64,000 nucleotides of DNA from Thermoanaerobaculia bacterium (lineage in GTDB: Bacteria; Acidobacteriota; Thermoanaerobaculia; Multivoradales; JAHEKO01). A program made the translations under genes and the position numbers. Shown here in pieces: positions 17,453 to 26,320 of the stretch; within the stretch, counting starts at the first letter, position 1; each line of letters begins with the position of its first letter. Under the pieces are notes generated by a model. That model was not told the DNA's origin and did not search any database. It was given only the letters and a program-made list of their open reading frames with translations. Where the stretch lies: positions 1,896 to 65,895 of the forward strand of contig CALZKB010000045.1 of NCBI GenBank assembly GCA_945787575.1, given 5' to 3'.

Positions 17453-18190
17453 ATGAGTCGACGGAAGATCGCGGTCGTTACCGGCGCGAGTGCCGGCATC
17501 GGGGCGGCCACGGCCCGAGCGCTGTACGCCGCCGGTTTCGAGGTCGTCATCGGCGCCCGACGCCTGGATCGGCTGCGTGATCTGGCGGCGGAGATCGACG
17601 CCACGGCCTGCGAGCTCGACGTCACCGAAGACGAGAGCGTCGCGCGGTTCGCGGCCGCCTTCGAGCGGGTCGACCTGCTGGTCAACAACGCGGGGTTCAG
17701 TCTCGGTCTCGCGCCTGTTGTCGAGAGCGACCCCGCGGAATGGGCCGCCATGCACGACACCAACGTGGTCGGCGTCGTGCGGCTGATTCGCGCGCTCCTG
17801 CCGAGGCTGCTCGAATCCGGCGACGGGCATGTGATCAACGTCGGGTCGATCGCCGGCTTCGAGGTCTACCCCGGTGGTGGCGGCTACGCGGGGTCGAAAC
17901 ACGCCCTCCGGGCGCTGACCAGGACGCTTCGGCTGGAGCTGCTGGGGCAACCGGTGAGAGTGACCGAGGTCTGCCCGGGGATGACGGAGACGGAGTTCTC
18001 GCTGGTGCGCTTCGCCGGTGACGAGGCGCGAGCCGCGGCCGTATACGGGGGGATGACGCCGCTGGCGGCGGACGATGTCGCGGAGTGCATTTCGTGGGCT
18101 GCGACTCGGCCTCCTCACGTCAACATCGACGAGATCGTCGTCCGGCCGAGGGACCAGGCCGCGGCCCACGCCGTACATCGAGACGGCTGA
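17453..18190 (+). CDS. SDR family NAD(P)-dependent oxidoreductase (YdfG-like)
   Basis: TGASAGIG glycine motif, NNAG, catalytic YAGSK. Confidence 0.85.
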   Translation: MSRRKIAVVTGASAGIGAATARALYAAGFEVVIGARRLDRLRDLAAEIDATACELDVTEDESVARFAAAFERVDLLVNNAGFSLGLAPVVESDPAEWAAMHDTNVVGVVRLIRALLPRLLESGDGHVINVGSIAGFEVYPGGGGYAGSKHALRALTRTLRLELLGQPVRVTEVCPGMTETEFSLVRFAGDEARAAAVYGGMTPLAADDVAECISWAATRPPHVNIDEIVVRPRDQAAAHAVHRDG

Positions 18191-18234
18191 GCCCGGTTCC
18201 GATTCGACGCACTGATGGGTCCAAAGAAGTGGGG

Positions 18235-21200
18235 ATGCCGATGGGGGTATTTCGAGCGAGGCGTTTTAGGGTGGCGGGCACTGTCGTTCTCGTCGCGGTC
18301 TGCCTCGGTGGCGGCGGCAGCCCTTCCGAAGCGCTGGCCGCCGGCGGTAACGGTCCGCTGCAGCGAGGAGAGGCGGTCGTGAGCCGATCCGCGGAGTGGG
18401 CCGAGGTCGATCGGCTGATCGAGGAGCAAAAGAACCAGGCGGCCGTCTCCGCCGTCCGGGAGATTCGATCGCGGGCGATCGCTGCCGAGGACGCGAAGAA
18501 CTGGACTCTCGCTCTCGTCCGAGAGGCCCAGCTGACGGCGGCTCTCGGCGGGGTCGAGAGCGCGGTGCGGTTGCTAGCCGGCGAGCCGTGGCCCGAGGAT
18601 CCGCGCGCAAGGATCGCTCTCGAGTTGCTCTACGCCCATTCACTGACGCGTTATCTCGACTACTACGGATGGGAGATCGGCCAGCGCGAGCGAATCGGTC
18701 CGCGCGACCAGGTCGATCTCGGTCAGTGGACCCGCGAACAGGTGATTCGAGCCGTGGAGGAAGCGTTCTTGGCGCTGTGGGCCGACCGTGAGGCCTGGGA
18801 CATCGAGCCGCTGGCCGAGCTGTCGGCCTACGTCGATCCCAACGACTACCCGGCGCGCATCCGCGGGACGTTGCGCGACGCGCTGACTCATCTGTGGGTC
18901 GACGTCCTGGGGAACACCGCCTACTGGTCCCCCGCCGAGTCGAACGCCGTCTATCGGCTCGACTTCGCCGCTCTCGCCGGCGGCGAGCAGTCAGGTCCGG
19001 GCGTGGCGGATCACCCGCTCGCCCGGCTCTCGGCGCTGTTGGCCGATCTCGAACGTTGGCACGCCGAAGCTGGGCGATCCGAAGCGGCCTTCGATGCTCT
19101 GCTGACCCGGATCGACAGACTCCGACCGCACGTAGGAGGCGACGACGATCGCCGGACTCTCGAAGAGCAGCTGAGCGGCGCGCTCGCCGAGTTGGGAGAG
19201 AGCTTCGAGTGGTGGTCGGTGGGCCAGGAGCTGCTCGCGCAGATCGTCAGGGCCGCCGACGAGCCGAGCAGCCTGCTCGAGGCTCGGGACCTCGCTCGGC
19301 AGGGGCTCGAGGCCCATCCGGAGAGCATCGGAGGTCGCCGTTGCGCTCATCTCGTGGCGTCTCTCGAAACTCCGACTTTCTCTTTGGAGGCGATGCGCTC
19401 GGATGGAGCCGACCGTCGCTCGATCGCGGTCCGACACAAGAACCTCGAGCGCCTGCACTTCCGCGCCTACCGCCTCGATCTCGAGAGGGCGCTGACGACA
19501 GGTCAGGACTACAACCTGTTGCCGAGCCACCGGGCGGTCGAGAAGTTGCTCGCCGGGGACGAGCCCGACTTCGTATGGGCGGTCGAGCTCCCAGAGACGC
19601 CCGATCTCCGCGAGCATCGAACCTTCGTCACGCCTGAGTCCGGGGAAACGGGGCTGTACGTCGTGGCGGCGTCGGCGCGTCCCGGCTTTCGAGCCAAGGG
19701 TAATCGCGTGCAGGCGATTCACTGGGTGAAGACCGGCCTGGTGCTCCTCGCCAGCGCGCAGGGTCAAGAGCTGCAGGCGGAGGTGCTTTCTGGCGCGAGC
19801 GGCGATCCGGTCTCCGGCGCCACGCTGGAGCTCTGGCAGCTCGACTATCGGGCCGGCCACCGTCGCATCGGCTCGGCGACGACCGCGGCAGACGGGACGG
19901 CGCGTCTCGATTCGACCGGGGAGCGCAGAGTCGATGCGCTCGCGATCGCGCGGCTCGCCGGCGACGTCACCTTCGAGCGGGTCTCCTTCGGACCGGGCGG
20001 CGGAAGACCGGAGCGTGAGTACGATCAGGCTCTCGTCTACACCGACCGCAGCGTCTACCGCCCCGGCCAGGAGATTCTCTGGAAGCTCGTCGCCTACCGG
20101 CGCTCGGCGGCGAAGCAGGCTCTGGAGGTGCGCCCTGGCGCCGCGGCAACAGTCGAGCTTCTCGATGCCAACTACGAGGTCGTCGACTCGGTCGAGGTCG
20201 AGACCAACGGTTTCGGGAGCGCCTCGGGCCGCTTCTCGATTCCGCTCGGACGGCTCCTTGGCTCCTGGCAGTTGCGCACCTCTGTGGGTGGCCAGGCGCA
20301 GGTACAGGTCGAGGAGTACAAACGGCCGACCTTCGAGGTGACCCTCGACGAGCCCGCCGAGAGCCAGCGGCTCAACCGGCCGGCGCAGATCGAGGGCGAG
20401 GCTCGCTACTACTTCGGCTTGCCGATCATCGATGCCCAGGTCCGCTGGCGGGCTACCCGCGAGCCTCGATATCCACCATGGTGGGGTTGGCTCCGGCGCA
20501 CGCCCCAAAGGGGGGCGGAGGTGGTGGCTGCGGGAGAGACGCGCCTCGATGCCGCTGGCCGGTTCGCTTTCGCCTTCACGCCGCAGGCGGACGAACGGGA
20601 AGCTGCCGACGGCGTTGCCTATCGCTACACGGTGGACGCCGAAGTGACCGATTCCGGGGGCGAGACCCGCTCCGCCAGTCGCGCCTTCACGCTCGGATTC
20701 GTCGCCGTGCGGGCGACACTCGAGGCGCAACGGGCGTTTTTCACCCCTGACGTAGCTCCCAGCTACGAGATTCGGCGGACCGACCTCGACGGGGTGGGGC
20801 GTGCGGGTGCGGCAAGATGGACGGTCGTCGCTCTCGAGCTTCCGGCGGAAGTCGCGCTGCCTGCCGACGAGCCGCTCCCGACGCCGGACGACGAGGAGAC
20901 GTTCGCCACGCCGGGCGACCTCCAACGGCCTCGTTGGGCGACGGACTACCGGGTCGCTGAGCGGCTTCGGAGCTGGCGCGACGGTGCCGAGGTCGCCAAC
21001 GGTCGGCTCGAGCACGGCGAGAATGGCGAGGCTCGGCTCGAGCTGCCCGCCCTGCCGTCGGGAGCGTATCGCCTCCGCTACGAGACCGAGGACTCCTTCG
21101 GTGCACTATTCGAGACCCAAGACGAGTTGATCGTGGCCGGCGGCACGCCACTCCCACTCCCGGCCTTTCTGGCGGTCGAGCGTTCGAGGGTACCGGTCGG

Positions 21201-24200
21201 CGCGGTGGCCAGGATCCTCGTGCACTCGGCGCTGCCCGAGCAGTCGTTGACCCTCGAGGTAACCCGCCCCGGTCGCCCGAGGGAGCTTCGCCGTTTCGAG
21301 GCCGGCTCCGCGCCGATCGTTGTCGACCTGCCGATCGAAGAGCTCGATCGCGGGGGGGTGCACCTGCTTCTGCGCGGCCTGCGCGACTACCAGCTGATGA
21401 CTCTCGCAGGGGGGATCGTGGTGCCGCCGCCGGAGCGCGATCTCGACGTCCGATTCACGACGTTTCGCGACCTTCTCCGCCCGGGTGCCCACGAAAGCTG
21501 GAGGATCACCCTCGCCGGCAGCGAGGGTGACGAGCTGGCGGCCGGGGCGGCCGAAGTCCTGACCTACATGTACGATCGTAGCCTCGATCTCTTCGCGCCG
21601 CATCAGCCGCCGAGGCCGGAGGGTTTCAGGCCCCACTCCCCGGTGCCCGCGCCCTGGCGCTCGAGTCTGGGGCGGTCCAATCCCGTCCTGCAGCGCGAGC
21701 AGAAGTGGCACGAGGTACCGCCCTATCCGCGGCTACAGAGCGATCAGATCCGGTTCTTCGACAGCTACGGCATCGGCGGGCCGGGGCATCGGAGGCTGAT
21801 GCAGCGGGGCGGACCGCAGATGATGGAGGCCCCCTCCTCGGCGTCGGTCGAGATGGCGGTCGAAGCCACCTCGGACGCGGGTGCGGTGCCGGTCGCCGAG
21901 CAGGTGATGAAGAACGGCGAGGACGGTCCCGGCTCTTGGCCTCCGGAAGGGGCTGGTGACAGGGCCCTGCGGACAGATTTCTCGGAGACCGCCTTTTGGG
22001 AACCTCATCTGGTGACCGATGGCGACGGCGAGGTCGCCTTCGAGTTCGACGTTCCCGATTCGGTGACCGAGTGGAATGTCTGGGTCCACGCGCTGACCCG
22101 GGAATTGCGCTACGGCTCGCTCGAGCAGCGGGTTCGCACAGCCAAGGATCTACTCGTGCGACCCTATCTTCCTCGTTTCCTCCGTGAAGGCGATCGCGCC
22201 GAGCTCAAGATCGTCGTGCAGAACGCGGGTGAGAAACCACTCTCCGGTGAGCTCGAGCTCGACCTCCTCGATCCGGCTACCGGCGTGAGTATGGCGAGTG
22301 ATTTCGGCCTGGCGAACACGGCCCGAAAGGGCCTCCCCTTCGCGGTCGGGCCCGGCGAGAGCGAGGCGTTGACCGTGGCGCTCCAGGCTCCGCGCCGGGT
22401 CGGCTCGGTGGCCGTCCGGGTCATGGGTGAGGCCGGTGACTGGAGCGACGGCGAGCTGCGGCCGCTCCCGCTGCTACCCGGGCGCTATCACCTGAGCCAG
22501 TCGCGCTTCGCGGCGCTCGACGATGCCGTTCGCCGGGTGCTCGTGTTCGAGGATCTCGGTGCTGATGACGACCCCTCCCGGATCGACGAGCAGCTCGTCG
22601 TCACGCTCGATGCCCAGCTCTTCGACACCGTCCTCGCCGCGCTCCCTTACCTCGTCGACTATCCCTACGAGTGCACCGAACAGATCCTCAACCGCTTCCT
22701 GTCGACCGGCATCGTGAGCTCGGTGTTCGAGGATCACCCCGCCGTCGCCGGGATGGCCGCGCAGCTCGCCCAACGCGAGACGGAGCTTGAGCCGTGGAGC
22801 CAAGACGACCCGAACCGCTCGATGGCACTGGTCGAAACACCGTGGTTGCATGACGCGGCCGGCGGAGAGACGTCCACCGAACGGCTCATCAGGGTGCTCG
22901 ATCCAGGGGTCGCGCGAGCGGAGCGGGACACGGCGCTCGCCAGCCTGCGACAGGCCCAGACCAGTCTCGGCGGCTTCCCGTGGTGGCCGGGAGGGCCGCC
23001 GTCTCCACACATGACGCTCTACATTCTGAGCGGCCTCTCCCGCGCTCTCGAGTTCGGGATCGAGATCCCGCGTGACCTCGTAGTGCCCGCATGGCGCTAC
23101 CTGCGGCAGCACTACCTGGCGGAGCTGGTTGCGGAGATGGAGCGCGAGGAAGGGCGCCACGAGCTGTTGACCATGCTCAATTTCGTGCTCTCGAGCTATC
23201 CCGACGAGTCGTGGACTCCGATCGACGAATCTTGGACGGGTGGCGTCTTCACCAAAGAGGATCGCCTTCGGATGCTCGAACATTCCTTCCAACACTGGCG
23301 TGAGCACTCTCCGCTGCTCAAGGGCTACCTGGCGCTCACCTTGAAGCGTGCCGGCCGCGACGCCGACGCGCGCCTCGTCTTCGACAGCGTCATGGACTCG
23401 GCCAAGACGAGCGAGGATCTGGGCACCTACTGGGCTCCCGAGGAGCGCGCCTGGCTCTGGTATAACGACACGATCGAGACTCACGCATTGGCGCTTCGGG
23501 TTCTCGGAGAGATCGACCCCGACGATCCGAGCCGGCAAGGGCTCGTCCACTGGCTGATGCTCAACAAGAAGCTCAGTCACTGGAAGTCGACGCGGGCGAC
23601 CGCCGAGGTCCTCTACTCGCTCGTTCACTACCTCGCTGGCGAGGGCGAGCTCGGGCAACGGGAAGAGGCGACGGTCGAGCTCGGCGGTGAGACCCGCCGG
23701 TTCGTCTTCGAGCCCGGGGACTTCGCCGGGCGCGAGCGCCAGATCGTCCTGCCGGGCACGGAGCTGAGCGCGAGACACGCGACGATCACGGTCGCGAAGG
23801 AGACGCCCGGCCTGCTCTTCGCCTCGGCGACCTGGCACTTCTCGACGGAGCAGCTCCCGACCGAGTCGCGCAGTGACTTCTTCGGAGTGGAACGGCGCTA
23901 CTACCGTCGACTCCAGACGGCTGGAGAATGGGTGCTCGAGCCGCTGGTCGACGGAACGGTGCTCACGCCGGGCGATCAGGTCGAGGTCCAGCTGTCCCTG
24001 CGCACCCGCCACGCGGCGGAGTACGTGCACTTGCGCGATCCTCGCGCCGCCGGCTTCGAGCCCGAGAGCCTGATCTCGGGCTACAACTGGGACCTGGGCA
24101 TCGGCTGGTACGAACAGGTGCGCGACAGCGGCACCGATTTCTTCTTCGAGTGGCTGCCGGTCGGGGAGTACACGTTCAAGTATCGGCTGCGAGCGAATCT

Positions 24201-24306
24201 CGGCGGCACCTTCAAGGCGGGCCCGGCGACAGTGCAGTCGATGTACGCCCCGGAGTTCACGGCCTACTCTTCGGGCGCCACTCTGACGATCGGCGCGACC
24301 CCGTGA
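18235..24306 (+). CDS. alpha-2-macroglobulin family protein (bacterial A2M-like, ~2020 aa)
   Basis: Signal / lipoprotein-like N-terminus (VVLVAVCLGGGGS). Mid-C-terminal block LPYLVDYPYECTEQILNRF contains a CxEQ thioester motif. Size and beta-rich repeats fit the MG-domain architecture. Confidence 0.6.
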   Translation: MPMGVFRARRFRVAGTVVLVAVCLGGGGSPSEALAAGGNGPLQRGEAVVSRSAEWAEVDRLIEEQKNQAAVSAVREIRSRAIAAEDAKNWTLALVREAQLTAALGGVESAVRLLAGEPWPEDPRARIALELLYAHSLTRYLDYYGWEIGQRERIGPRDQVDLGQWTREQVIRAVEEAFLALWADREAWDIEPLAELSAYVDPNDYPARIRGTLRDALTHLWVDVLGNTAYWSPAESNAVYRLDFAALAGGEQSGPGVADHPLARLSALLADLERWHAEAGRSEAAFDALLTRIDRLRPHVGGDDDRRTLEEQLSGALAELGESFEWWSVGQELLAQIVRAADEPSSLLEARDLARQGLEAHPESIGGRRCAHLVASLETPTFSLEAMRSDGADRRSIAVRHKNLERLHFRAYRLDLERALTTGQDYNLLPSHRAVEKLLAGDEPDFVWAVELPETPDLREHRTFVTPESGETGLYVVAASARPGFRAKGNRVQAIHWVKTGLVLLASAQGQELQAEVLSGASGDPVSGATLELWQLDYRAGHRRIGSATTAADGTARLDSTGERRVDALAIARLAGDVTFERVSFGPGGGRPEREYDQALVYTDRSVYRPGQEILWKLVAYRRSAAKQALEVRPGAAATVELLDANYEVVDSVEVETNGFGSASGRFSIPLGRLLGSWQLRTSVGGQAQVQVEEYKRPTFEVTLDEPAESQRLNRPAQIEGEARYYFGLPIIDAQVRWRATREPRYPPWWGWLRRTPQRGAEVVAAGETRLDAAGRFAFAFTPQADEREAADGVAYRYTVDAEVTDSGGETRSASRAFTLGFVAVRATLEAQRAFFTPDVAPSYEIRRTDLDGVGRAGAARWTVVALELPAEVALPADEPLPTPDDEETFATPGDLQRPRWATDYRVAERLRSWRDGAEVANGRLEHGENGEARLELPALPSGAYRLRYETEDSFGALFETQDELIVAGGTPLPLPAFLAVERSRVPVGAVARILVHSALPEQSLTLEVTRPGRPRELRRFEAGSAPIVVDLPIEELDRGGVHLLLRGLRDYQLMTLAGGIVVPPPERDLDVRFTTFRDLLRPGAHESWRITLAGSEGDELAAGAAEVLTYMYDRSLDLFAPHQPPRPEGFRPHSPVPAPWRSSLGRSNPVLQREQKWHEVPPYPRLQSDQIRFFDSYGIGGPGHRRLMQRGGPQMMEAPSSASVEMAVEATSDAGAVPVAEQVMKNGEDGPGSWPPEGAGDRALRTDFSETAFWEPHLVTDGDGEVAFEFDVPDSVTEWNVWVHALTRELRYGSLEQRVRTAKDLLVRPYLPRFLREGDRAELKIVVQNAGEKPLSGELELDLLDPATGVSMASDFGLANTARKGLPFAVGPGESEALTVALQAPRRVGSVAVRVMGEAGDWSDGELRPLPLLPGRYHLSQSRFAALDDAVRRVLVFEDLGADDDPSRIDEQLVVTLDAQLFDTVLAALPYLVDYPYECTEQILNRFLSTGIVSSVFEDHPAVAGMAAQLAQRETELEPWSQDDPNRSMALVETPWLHDAAGGETSTERLIRVLDPGVARAERDTALASLRQAQTSLGGFPWWPGGPPSPHMTLYILSGLSRALEFGIEIPRDLVVPAWRYLRQHYLAELVAEMEREEGRHELLTMLNFVLSSYPDESWTPIDESWTGGVFTKEDRLRMLEHSFQHWREHSPLLKGYLALTLKRAGRDADARLVFDSVMDSAKTSEDLGTYWAPEERAWLWYNDTIETHALALRVLGEIDPDDPSRQGLVHWLMLNKKLSHWKSTRATAEVLYSLVHYLAGEGELGQREEATVELGGETRRFVFEPGDFAGRERQIVLPGTELSARHATITVAKETPGLLFASATWHFSTEQLPTESRSDFFGVERRYYRRLQTAGEWVLEPLVDGTVLTPGDQVEVQLSLRTRHAAEYVHLRDPRAAGFEPESLISGYNWDLGIGWYEQVRDSGTDFFFEWLPVGEYTFKYRLRANLGGTFKAGPATVQSMYAPEFTAYSSGATLTIGATP

Positions 24307-24357: not shown

Positions 24358-24381
24358 TCCCCCGGTCCCCCGGTCCCCCGG
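24358..24381. repeat. tandem 8-mer tcccccgg x3
   Basis: Directly visible in the low-complexity spacer between the A2M gene and the RHH-like gene. Confidence 0.7.
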
Positions 24382-24434
24382 CTACCGGGAAGGTGTGGTC
24401 TCCGAGAGCCCACTTGATTCTATTTTGGTACTCA

Positions 24435-24455
24435 GGTACCATGGTACTACCATGG
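24435..24455. promoter_or_regulatory. candidate operator: perfect 12-bp palindrome GTACCATGGTAC nested in a 17-bp near-palindrome CCATGGTACTACCATGG overlapping the start codon at 24452
   Basis: Read directly from the sequence. Lies in a locally AT-richer stretch immediately 5' of the RHH-like gene. Confidence 0.45.
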
Positions 24456-24721
24456 CACGGAAACCCGATGGCGAACGGTACCTCGTCGAACGCGTTCAGA
24501 CCGGCGTCCGGATCGAGAAGAGAATCCTCAAGGTCTTGAAGGCCCTCGCCGAGTATCTGGAGATGACGCTCGGCGATCTGCTCGAAGGGGTGGTCCTTCA
24601 CGCCTTCGAGGGCAAAGCCCCCTTCGGAAAAGAGACCCTGGCCAAGATCGAGCAGCTCAAGTCGGTTTACGGGCTCGAGCTCGACGCCGAAGCGAGCCAT
24701 CGCCTCGAGGAGGAGGGATGA
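24452..24721 (+). CDS. small ribbon-helix-helix-like DNA-binding protein (putative antitoxin / autorepressor)
   Basis: 89 aa. Predicted beta strand TGVRIEKRI, then helices LKVLKALAEYLEMT - LG - DLLEGVVLHAF (RHH pattern), acidic C-terminal tail. ATGA overlap with the downstream gene. Confidence 0.45.
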   Translation: MARKPDGERYLVERVQTGVRIEKRILKVLKALAEYLEMTLGDLLEGVVLHAFEGKAPFGKETLAKIEQLKSVYGLELDAEASHRLEEEG

Positions 24722-25092
24722 CCGATCGAGAGTTGCTGGCCGCGTTCGAGAGTGGCCGGATCGAACCCGGGGCGTTCTGTCATGCCGAGCACGTGCGGAC
24801 CGCTTGGCTCTGCTTGCAACGCGAGGAGCCGGCGGCGGCACTCGGTCGATACGTCGACTCGATCCGACGGCGAGCCCCCGTGCGCTACCACGAGACGATC
24901 ACCTGGGCGTACGTCCTCCTCATTCGGGAGCGGATGGAGCCCGGGGGGGAGTGGGGAGCGTTCGCGCGCCGCAACCCCGATCTGATGGACTGGCAACAGC
25001 CGCTGCTGCATCGCTACTACTCGCCGGAGCTGCTCGCCTCGCAACGGGCTCGCGAGCGTTTCGTCTGGCCCGATCGCGGCGCCGAGTCCTGA
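24718..25092 (+). CDS. hypothetical 124-aa protein co-transcribed with the RHH-like gene (possible toxin partner)
   Basis: 4-nt overlap with the upstream gene. No family recognised. Contains RRRAPVRYH (weak Rx4-6H-like motif). Followed by a strong terminator. Confidence 0.4.
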   Translation: MTDRELLAAFESGRIEPGAFCHAEHVRTAWLCLQREEPAAALGRYVDSIRRRAPVRYHETITWAYVLLIRERMEPGGEWGAFARRNPDLMDWQQPLLHRYYSPELLASQRARERFVWPDRGAES

Positions 25093-25118
25093 CGACGCCG
25101 CTCCCGGGAAAAAGAAAA

Positions 25119-25156
25119 CCCCGGCTGTCTCCAGCCGGGGTCTTCATGGTTTGTCT
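25119..25156 (+). terminator. rho-independent terminator
   Basis: Perfect 9-bp stem ccccggctg/cagccgggg, loop tctc, then tcttcatggtttgtct. A-tract on the 5' side. Confidence 0.65.
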
Positions 25157-25529
25157 CGGTGGCGAGGGGTTCCCGTTAGGGGCTCTCCAGAGTAGCCACG
25201 GAGGCGTTGGAGGTTCCCACTAAGGGGTCGCCACCTCCACTAAACCTGGTTTACGTAACTCCACAGGATCACCTCCTCTCTGGGCGTACCCCTTGATGGC
25301 GAGCCCCACCTCGCCCAGTCTCGCGGACCGCCCGGATCCGTCGAGAGCTGCCACATTGTCGGGAACGTGGATTCTTCGCATGGGGCGTATGTTGAAAGAT
25401 TGCGGGACGGCTTGTCAATCCGCTCGGAGCACCGGTTTTCCTCTTGTTCGACGCCAGTTAGCTGGACACGGTAGTCGTTTGGCGATCGAGGTGCCTTAAG
25501 ATCCGAGTTCAATGGAGGAGGAAGCAACG

Positions 25530-26320
25530 ATGAGAGGGAGTCTCGAGTTCGGGATCGCTTCGCTTGCGATGATGATGCTGTGCGCGCCGATCGGCGCGCA
25601 GGAGGAGACGGTCGCGTCGATCGCGACCGTCAAGGTGACCGAGGGAATTTACATGCTCCAGGGGGAGGGGGGCAACATCGGCCTGGCGGTAGGACCGGAT
25701 GCGACCTTCCTGATCGACGATCAGTACGCGCCGGTGACCGAGGCGATTCTCGAGGCGGTCGCCGAGGTGACCGATCGATCGATCGATTTCGTTCTCAACA
25801 CCCACTGGCACGGAGATCACACGGGGAGATCGCGAGGCCGGCGCTGACCTTTCGTGATTCGCTGACCTTTCACCTCAACGGTCAGACGATCCGTGCCTTG
25901 CACCTCGACCCGAACGCGCATACCGATGGGGACGCGCTCGTCTTCTTCGAGCAAGCGGACGTCGTGCACATGGGCGACACCTTCTTCAGCGGCATGTACC
26001 CGTTCATCGACGTCGGTGGCGGAGGCACCCTTGCCGGGATGATCCGGATCGCCGACAAGGTCCTCGCTCGAATCGGCGAGGACACCAAGATCATCCCCGG
26101 TCACGGTCCGCTGTCGATCCGAGCGGAACTGGCGGCTTCCCGCGAGATGATGCAGGGTCTCCACGACGCGATGAGCGCCCTCGTGGACGAGGGCAAGAGT
26201 CGCGACGAGGCGATCGCCGCCCAGCCGACGGCACCGTGGGACGAGAAATGGGCGGGCTTTCTGCCGCCTGACGTGATCGCTGGAATCGTCTACGACAGCG
26301 TGCTGGCCGAGCGAGAGTGA
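25530..26320 (+). pseudogene. MBL-fold metallo-hydrolase (B3-like), disrupted by internal deletion/frameshift
   Basis: Frame 1 (from the ATG at 25530 behind GGAGGAGGAAG) gives signal peptide plus ...FVLNTHWHGDHTG and then stops. Frame 2 continues PALTFRDSLTFHLNGQTIRALHL...HTDGD...IPGHGPL. About 40 residues expected between HTGG and ALTF are missing. Confidence 0.6.

Follow-up and report, generated by a model that had tools for sequence, protein, structure and literature searches.

What kind of system is encoded by two small overlapping genes, here called A and B, in the 64,000-nucleotide stretch of the Thermoanaerobaculia bacterium contig CALZKB010000045.1 that we analyzed (the window)? The initial annotation, made from the sequence alone, described two small open reading frames (ORFs) joined by an ATGA overlap and proposed that they form a mobile toxin-antitoxin or addiction pair. 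The gene layout is as described there (an overlap of 4 nt; Table 1). A small DNA binder and a small uncatalogued protein with overlapping genes are nevertheless insufficient to call a toxin-antitoxin system, and the evidence presented below argues that the locus is probably an autoregulated small repressor with its cargo operon rather than an addiction module. This kind of system is familiar; the family of A, its operator and the family of B are undescribed in the libraries and literature that we searched.

The DNA just ahead of A carries a conserved operator. The perfect 12-bp palindrome reported earlier, GTACCATGGTAC, is present in the window, and it makes up two of three tandem 8-bp boxes, whose GTAC cores (24428-24431, 24436-24439 and 24444-24447) are spaced by exactly 8 bp. 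The pattern GGTAC-N3-GGTAC-N3-GGTAC occurs once in the 64 kb, as compared to 0.02 occurrences expected by chance. The palindrome had also been thought to contain the start codon of A, but the ATG within it (24441) is out of the A frame; the true start is the ATG at 24452, in the next CCATGG, 4 nt past the palindrome.

The same boxes are found at relatives of A across bacteria. For 85 loci we surveyed the 110 nt that precede the conserved core of A, with 5304 windows from the same loci serving as controls. At least two strict GTAC cores 8 bp apart were present in 47 of the 85 upstream windows and in 3 of the controls; when one mismatch was tolerated in non-seed cores, at least three boxes were found in 62 loci and in 4 control windows. 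By this comparison, short repeated sites lie at A's own putative promoter. The A loci usually carry three tandem 8-bp palindromic boxes (range 2-5), with the box consensus TGGTACCA / TGGTACAT and, over 61 distinct loci, the longer consensus ttgGTACc.TGGTACatTGGTACca. The array occurs only once per 8-kb locus, at the A operon, and it spans at least 8 phyla (Acidobacteriota, Myxococcota, Proteobacteria, Chloroflexota, Gemmatimonadota, Verrucomicrobiota, Actinomycetota and Bacillota). The palindromic operator of the initial annotation thus belongs to a conserved box array, which lies over the putative promoter and the start codon.

The family consensus has a TTG 17 nt upstream of TACATT, and in the window a putative −35 and a putative −10 hexamer are found at the corresponding places. 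With this geometry the boxes would occupy the spacer, the −10 hexamer and the start site of the promoter. The first in-frame ATG falls within −10 to +6 nt of the last core in 33 of the 61 loci (+4 in the window). Such an ATG abuts the last box. This position fits a leaderless or nearly leaderless mRNA, and the transcript of A may well be of this type.

Three A homologues from Thermoanaerobaculia (L007, L012 and L025) have neither GTAC boxes nor a coupled partner gene, and have in common the sequence CGGATAGATT(G/C)GCGGGATGAAGGC directly before the start of A. They may represent a sub-lineage with an altered operator.

Protein A belongs to a large and highly conserved family, of which at least 8000 clusters exist at the 90% identity level. 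The 120 best matches share 68-100% identity with A, and all of them lack a Pfam domain. Relatives were confirmed in at least 557 GTDB species in a scan of one genome per species, and among the matches listed they come from Acidobacteriota, Myxococcota, Alpha-, Beta- and Gammaproteobacteria, Chloroflexota, Gemmatimonadota and Verrucomicrobiota. Matches in a plasmid collection extend the range to Actinomycetota (Nonomuraea, 71% identical) and to Bacillota (Bacillus cereus group). Identity across phyla is 65-90%, with the Bacillus cereus group member at 50%, and 32 residues are invariant in an alignment of 30 members. As the initial annotation had suspected, both A and B are uncatalogued: neither has a significant match in Pfam, NCBIfam, PADLOC or PHROGs, and profiles of the two proteins compared with the sequences of solved structures gave chance-level matches only. 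In the source records, relatives are named "hypothetical protein" and occasionally carry an automatic "CopG" or "XRE" label. Literature searches on the box pattern and on MetJ-like or ribbon-helix-helix (RHH) repressors returned no description of the A family, its operator or the B family.

Protein A is most likely an RHH-type DNA binder, with evidence that is consistent with this assignment and not decisive. The proposal of an RHH-like first protein therefore stands as to the probable type of DNA binder, while the supporting family match is sub-threshold: RHH_4 (PF13467) matches 30 of 30 members in register (residues 13-47 to profile positions 9-43). In the AlphaFold2 monomer model of A (predicted local distance difference test score, pLDDT, 71.7) residues 12-18 are extended and helices follow at 19-35, 40-53 and 60-72, and the invariant segment VQTGVRxEK shows an alternating polar/hydrophobic pattern as in a DNA-reading beta-ribbon. 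Taken together, the alignment and the model give an N-terminal strand with alternating polar residues and then two helices. An XRE helix-turn-helix assignment was also considered. The HTH_26 match on which it would stand is sub-threshold and covers profile positions 40-59 only, corresponding to the last two helices; it leaves no room for helices 1-3 or the recognition helix, and we therefore rejected this assignment.

The closest working analogue is the methionine repressor MetJ of E. coli (PF01340; PDB 1CMA, 1MJ2). MetJ is a small RHH repressor whose sites are 2-5 tandem 8-bp palindromic boxes (AGACGTCT) over promoters, with one dimer per box, and it governs methionine biosynthesis genes with S-adenosylmethionine as co-repressor. 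The tandem boxes of A are likewise 8-bp palindromes at a similar position. When A was compared by BLASTP with E. coli MetJ (query sequence verified against 1CMA), the strand, helix A and helix B aligned in register, with 13 of 44 residues identical (E 0.003, for a single comparison); the clearest stretch is LLEGVVLHAFEGKAP in A versus LLCEAFLHAFTGQPL in MetJ. However, the two differ in box sequence, and A is without the N-terminal arm of MetJ and ends in an invariant tail unlike that of MetJ. In addition, no methionine genes adjoin A in the 85 loci, and A occurs in many phyla and not in Gammaproteobacteria alone. A Pfam profile search, which included the 30 members, gave no PF01340 match for A.

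Protein A can also be compared with the small repressors Arc, Mnt, CopG and omega. It is of the same size class, has the predicted strand-helix-helix layout and is encoded by the first gene of a small operon, and the cooperative binding of repeated short sites over the own promoter that these proteins display is what we propose for A. In contrast to these phage- and plasmid-encoded repressors, A lies on the chromosome in a syntenic position and is almost absent from plasmids, and it has about 40 extra, highly conserved C-terminal residues.

The genes that accompany A are variable. The A-B pair is conserved in other genomes in part: the two genes adjoin one another in 47 of the 85 loci, but A is found without B in the other 38. 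Protein B is the commonest partner and directly follows A in about 33 loci. In about 20 loci the gene after A encodes a DoxX/MauE-like membrane protein of about 120 aa, and 10 of these loci are ordered A-C-B (C being the membrane protein gene). The partner is an SRPBCC / Polyketide_cyc2 protein in about 7 loci, an MFS transporter in 4 and a glyoxalase in 1, and several loci have no partner at all.

Where B is not co-transcribed with A, it has its own GTAC box array: in one locus A is convergent and the boxes run into the ATG of B (L088), and in another A and B diverge around a 60-bp spacer that bears the boxes (L089). Two loci with the order B-then-A (L059 and L064) have the boxes ahead of B, and in L071 a second array stands ahead of a convergent SRPBCC gene. 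Protein B is also found away from A. On plasmid pS1D4-14.1 of Streptomyces sp. S1D4-14 a B-family gene and the end of a MarR gene overlap by 4 nt (L091, 1989-2881), so that B is there the cargo of a different regulator class, and a Bacteroidota plasmid carries B without any A.

Operons in which a MarR-, ArsR- or PadR-type repressor governs detoxification cargo, such as MhqR and CatR-CatDE of B. subtilis, offer a parallel. They share with the A loci the variable DoxX, SRPBCC, glyoxalase/VOC and MFS cargo, and B itself occurs behind MarR. They differ in the regulator, as A has a different fold, is much smaller and shows no conserved sensing cysteine in the 30-member alignment.

The B family comprises 5120 clusters at 50% identity, with conserved residues H22, H25, Y57, H58, T60, T62 and R72. 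Its model is all-helical and confident (pLDDT 92.6), and fold comparison found no solved structural relative. We found no toxin-family match for B by sequence or by fold, and a Pfam scan of 96 diverse relatives gave no family common to more than one member. The string RRRAPVRYH had been read as a weak hint of an Rx4-6H motif. This reading does not hold, as the R-x5-H string in the window copy arises from a 9-residue deletion: H58 is conserved and an arginine 5-7 residues ahead of it is not, and in 37 of 39 close relatives an insertion parts the RR from the YH. Two toxin assignments were accordingly rejected, HEPN because Rx4-6H is not conserved among the 39 or the 96 relatives, and Doc because its motif is not conserved and there is no Fic motif. 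Protein B resembles HEPN and Doc/Fic toxins in being small and all-helical with conserved histidines, but R-x5-H is seen only in the window copy.

In some genomes B is joined in one protein to DoxX_2 domains, to a haem-oxygenase-like redox domain or to ankyrin repeats. DoxX membrane proteins are themselves poorly understood biochemically. The DoxX-B fusions, together with the detoxification-type cargo set, suggest a redox- or metal-linked role of B at the membrane, a suggestion that we regard as possible and rather doubtful.

A separate locus (L087, 900-1891) contains a B homologue without A behind an apparent rRNA operon, directly after a sequence that resembles 5S rRNA by eye. There B is followed by a gene for a 65-aa cysteine-rich peptide that looks like a ribosomal natural-product precursor.

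We propose the following mechanism. Dimers of A would bind cooperatively, side by side, to the three tandem 8-bp palindromic boxes, which would cover the promoter of A from its spacer through the −10 hexamer to the transcription start, and their occupancy would shut off the leaderless or nearly leaderless A-B transcript; A would thus probably act by repression rather than by activation. A signal would release A and induce the cargo; it may be a ligand, or else a stress that A senses by way of its invariant C-terminal part (an extra helix, as predicted, and a conserved tail). This cargo would be B in the window, and DoxX-like, SRPBCC, MFS or glyoxalase proteins in other genomes. Protein B itself, which carries three conserved histidines, would be a cytoplasmic, all-helical cargo protein. 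It would be linked in function to DoxX-like membrane proteins, and its role may be metal-, haem- or redox-linked, within a stress or detoxification response.

An alternative is that B is not cargo but a signal-sensing partner of A, which binds a metal or haem or responds to redox state and alters the affinity of A for the boxes, so that the two proteins form one switch. The three conserved histidines of B would suit a sensor site, A has an invariant C-terminal region, and B accompanies A more often than any other partner does, in most cases with translational coupling. In addition, the identities of A and B correlate across locus pairs (r = 0.61), a correlation that shared phylogeny explains equally well. 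However, many genomes have A without B, and A keeps the same C-terminal tail there. The fusions of B to DoxX-like and haem-oxygenase-like domains and its occurrence behind MarR point to an effector role that is independent of A, and we consider a two-protein switch improbable.

The toxin-antitoxin proposal holds that B is a new type II toxin and A an RHH antitoxin that neutralizes it through the C-terminal tail and represses its own promoter. A small DNA binder ahead of a small uncatalogued protein with a 4-nt overlap, a palindromic operator and a pair that recurs in more than half of the loci are all in keeping with such a module, and antitoxins are generally known to swap partners. Protein A also resembles RelB, ParD, CcdA and FitA in its predicted N-terminal RHH domain, its C-terminal extension, the overlap with a small second gene and the proposed autorepression through palindromic operators. 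RHH antitoxins are tied to one partner gene, and their C-terminal extension varies with that partner. In contrast, A is not bound to one partner, and its tail (YGLDLDAxASHRLxE) is equally kept whether the partner is B, a DoxX-like, an SRPBCC or an MFS protein, or is absent; the tail is therefore not a B-specific neutralizing domain. The remaining partners of A are not toxins; they comprise transporters, a glyoxalase and membrane proteins. Protein B, for which no toxin-family match was found by sequence or fold, also occurs with an operator of its own in divergent or convergent orientation to A, behind MarR, or alone, so that pairing and co-transcription of the two genes are not obligate. The relative rates of change point the same way: among 45 distinct loci with both genes (990 locus pairs), A was more conserved than B in 989 pairs, with median identities of 71.8% and 48.0%, respectively.

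The distribution of the locus is likewise not that of a patchy, mobile element. A diverged relative (L001, a JGI contig of 1.57 Mb) has the same gene order, A2M-A-B-MBL-PALP-AcrB, where MBL denotes a metallo-beta-lactamase-fold gene. Identities between the two loci are 60% for A2M, 56-59% for MBL, 69% for PALP, 74% for AcrB, 62% for B and 87.5% for A. As B falls within the range of the flanking proteins (56-74%), it has diverged in place like its neighbors. Among 72,556 plasmid records, A was found in 3 and B in 2, and one of the three A matches is an 11.85-Mb, chromosome-sized record listed as a plasmid. Neither the toxin-antitoxin reading nor the mobility that the initial annotation attributed to the locus is therefore supported, and we regard a toxin-antitoxin function as very unlikely.

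It is just as improbable that the boxes are bound by another factor, or are mere promoter elements, and that A is a small adaptor or chaperone: A has no RHH model at threshold and the −10 hexamer coincides with part of the box sequence, but the boxes accompany A across the phyla surveyed and in the 8-kb loci occur only at A or adjoining genes, no other conserved neighbor is common to all box-bearing A loci, the VQTGVRxEK pattern resembles a DNA-reading beta-ribbon, and three 8-bp palindromic repeats far exceed what a promoter needs.

Several observations weigh against an autoregulated repressor operon as the explanation of the locus. The RHH_4 match to A lies below the gathering cut-off in all 30 members (best E 0.0011), and no Pfam RHH model matches at threshold. 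A comparison of the A and MetJ families with hhalign is weak (probability 38%, E 3.4e-4, over 28 columns in helix B), and because of this weak similarity we take MetJ as a lead and an analogue and not as the family of A. About a quarter of the A loci are without recognizable boxes (L004, L007, L012, L025, L057 and others), and it is the comparison between loci that suggests A as the protein which binds the boxes. A simple sigma-70 consensus scan did not call the promoter of A, which is why we describe that promoter as putative. With regard to B, the window copy is without a 9-residue loop (consensus FAAAxGKPx) that 37 of the 39 close relatives keep and that includes a glycine nearly invariant among the 96 diverse relatives, and the role suggested for B is a guess from fusion proteins and gene neighbors.

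A broader interpretation, which is tentative and which we would not yet favor, extends the proposal beyond this locus. A would represent a hitherto unrecognized, pan-bacterial family of MetJ-like repressors with a nearly fixed operator code, tandem TGGTACCA boxes over a leaderless promoter, found from Bacillota and Actinomycetota to Acidobacteriota and switching on a stress and detoxification set of B, DoxX-like, SRPBCC, MFS and glyoxalase proteins; B would adopt a new fold, bind a metal or haem through histidine ligands and act together with DoxX-type membrane proteins. If so, one of the larger regulator families missing from the catalogues has a member in the window, and as the operator of A would be readable from genome sequence, no experiments would be needed to predict its targets across thousands of genomes. 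The B family is of interest in its own right, as a group of more than 5000 clusters with no annotation and a confident model that has no solved structural relative, and one whose members are fused to DoxX proteins in some genomes.

Table 1. Positions of the features of the A-B locus and its surroundings within the window.
Feature	Position	Strand	Description
ORF A	24452-24721	+	89 aa; starts MARKPDG
ORF B	24718-25092	+	124 aa
Operator	24426-24449		three tandem 8-bp boxes TGGTACTC / AGGTACCA / TGGTACTA
12-bp palindrome	24436-24447		two of the three boxes
Putative −35 TTGATT	24414-24419	+	TTG at fixed distance from the last GTAC core in the 61-locus consensus
Putative −10 TACCAT	24437-24442	+	within boxes 2 and 3; family consensus TACATT
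Loop-loss site in B	24868-24880	+	residues R52-P54
Upstream ORF	18085-24306		2073 aa; orthologue with MG2/A2M/bMG10 domains
Repeat (TCCCCCGG)x3	24358-24381		between the A2M stop and the putative A promoter; CGGTAG / CTACCG on its flanks
Hairpin	25114-25145		14-bp GC-rich stem, 22 nt past the B stop
Candidate structured non-coding RNA, ~275 nt	25108-25418	−	promoter-like hexamers, terminator, fold, compensatory changes
Broken MBL-fold gene	25531-26320		frame 3, 25569-25826 (residues 9-98); frame 2, 25826-26311 (residues 138-299)

The surroundings of the pair largely agree with the initial annotation. The giant gene upstream is an A2M gene, as judged from the domains of its orthologue, and the (tcccccgg)x3 repeat is present between it and the promoter region of A. 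This repeat is missing from the syntenic relative L001 and is therefore a local feature with no evident role. The lower-GC pocket also exists, as a modest dip (0.59 over 24400-24699 versus 0.65-0.70, about 0.67, around it), and the long non-coding stretch after B extends for approximately 420 nt 3' of the gene without a credible ORF.

A strong terminator had been assigned to the end of the pair. A hairpin is indeed found there, but its orientation is not the expected one, as the T-run lies on the minus strand. The hairpin is at best bidirectional and more likely ends a minus-strand transcript; its stem contains three compensatory pairs between the window and L001.

The stretch after B looks like a structured RNA encoded on the minus strand. 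Its DNA is 84% identical to that of L001, and about 93% in the core at 25160-25340, as compared to 56-74% for the flanking proteins, so that this stretch is more conserved than any neighboring protein. On the minus strand a conserved TTGACA (25418-25413) is found 18 nt from CAACAT (25394-25389), and at the other end the 14-bp terminator hairpin (25145-25114) is followed by a U-run. The candidate has a fold z-score of −4.4. Comparison of its only two distinct copies shows 10 compensatory base-pair changes, of which five fall in a single helix, and several G-U pairs in the region fit the minus strand. Rfam gave no match, either when the whole window was searched at gathering thresholds or when 25080-25560 was searched at E <= 1, and a metagenome scan with a 25-mer from the region found no further copies.

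Further downstream, the MBL-fold gene is broken, as had been noted before. It lies in two frames and, relative to the intact 303-aa orthologue of L001, about 39 residues are gone and a frameshift is present; the gene could be a pseudogene or the product of an assembly error.

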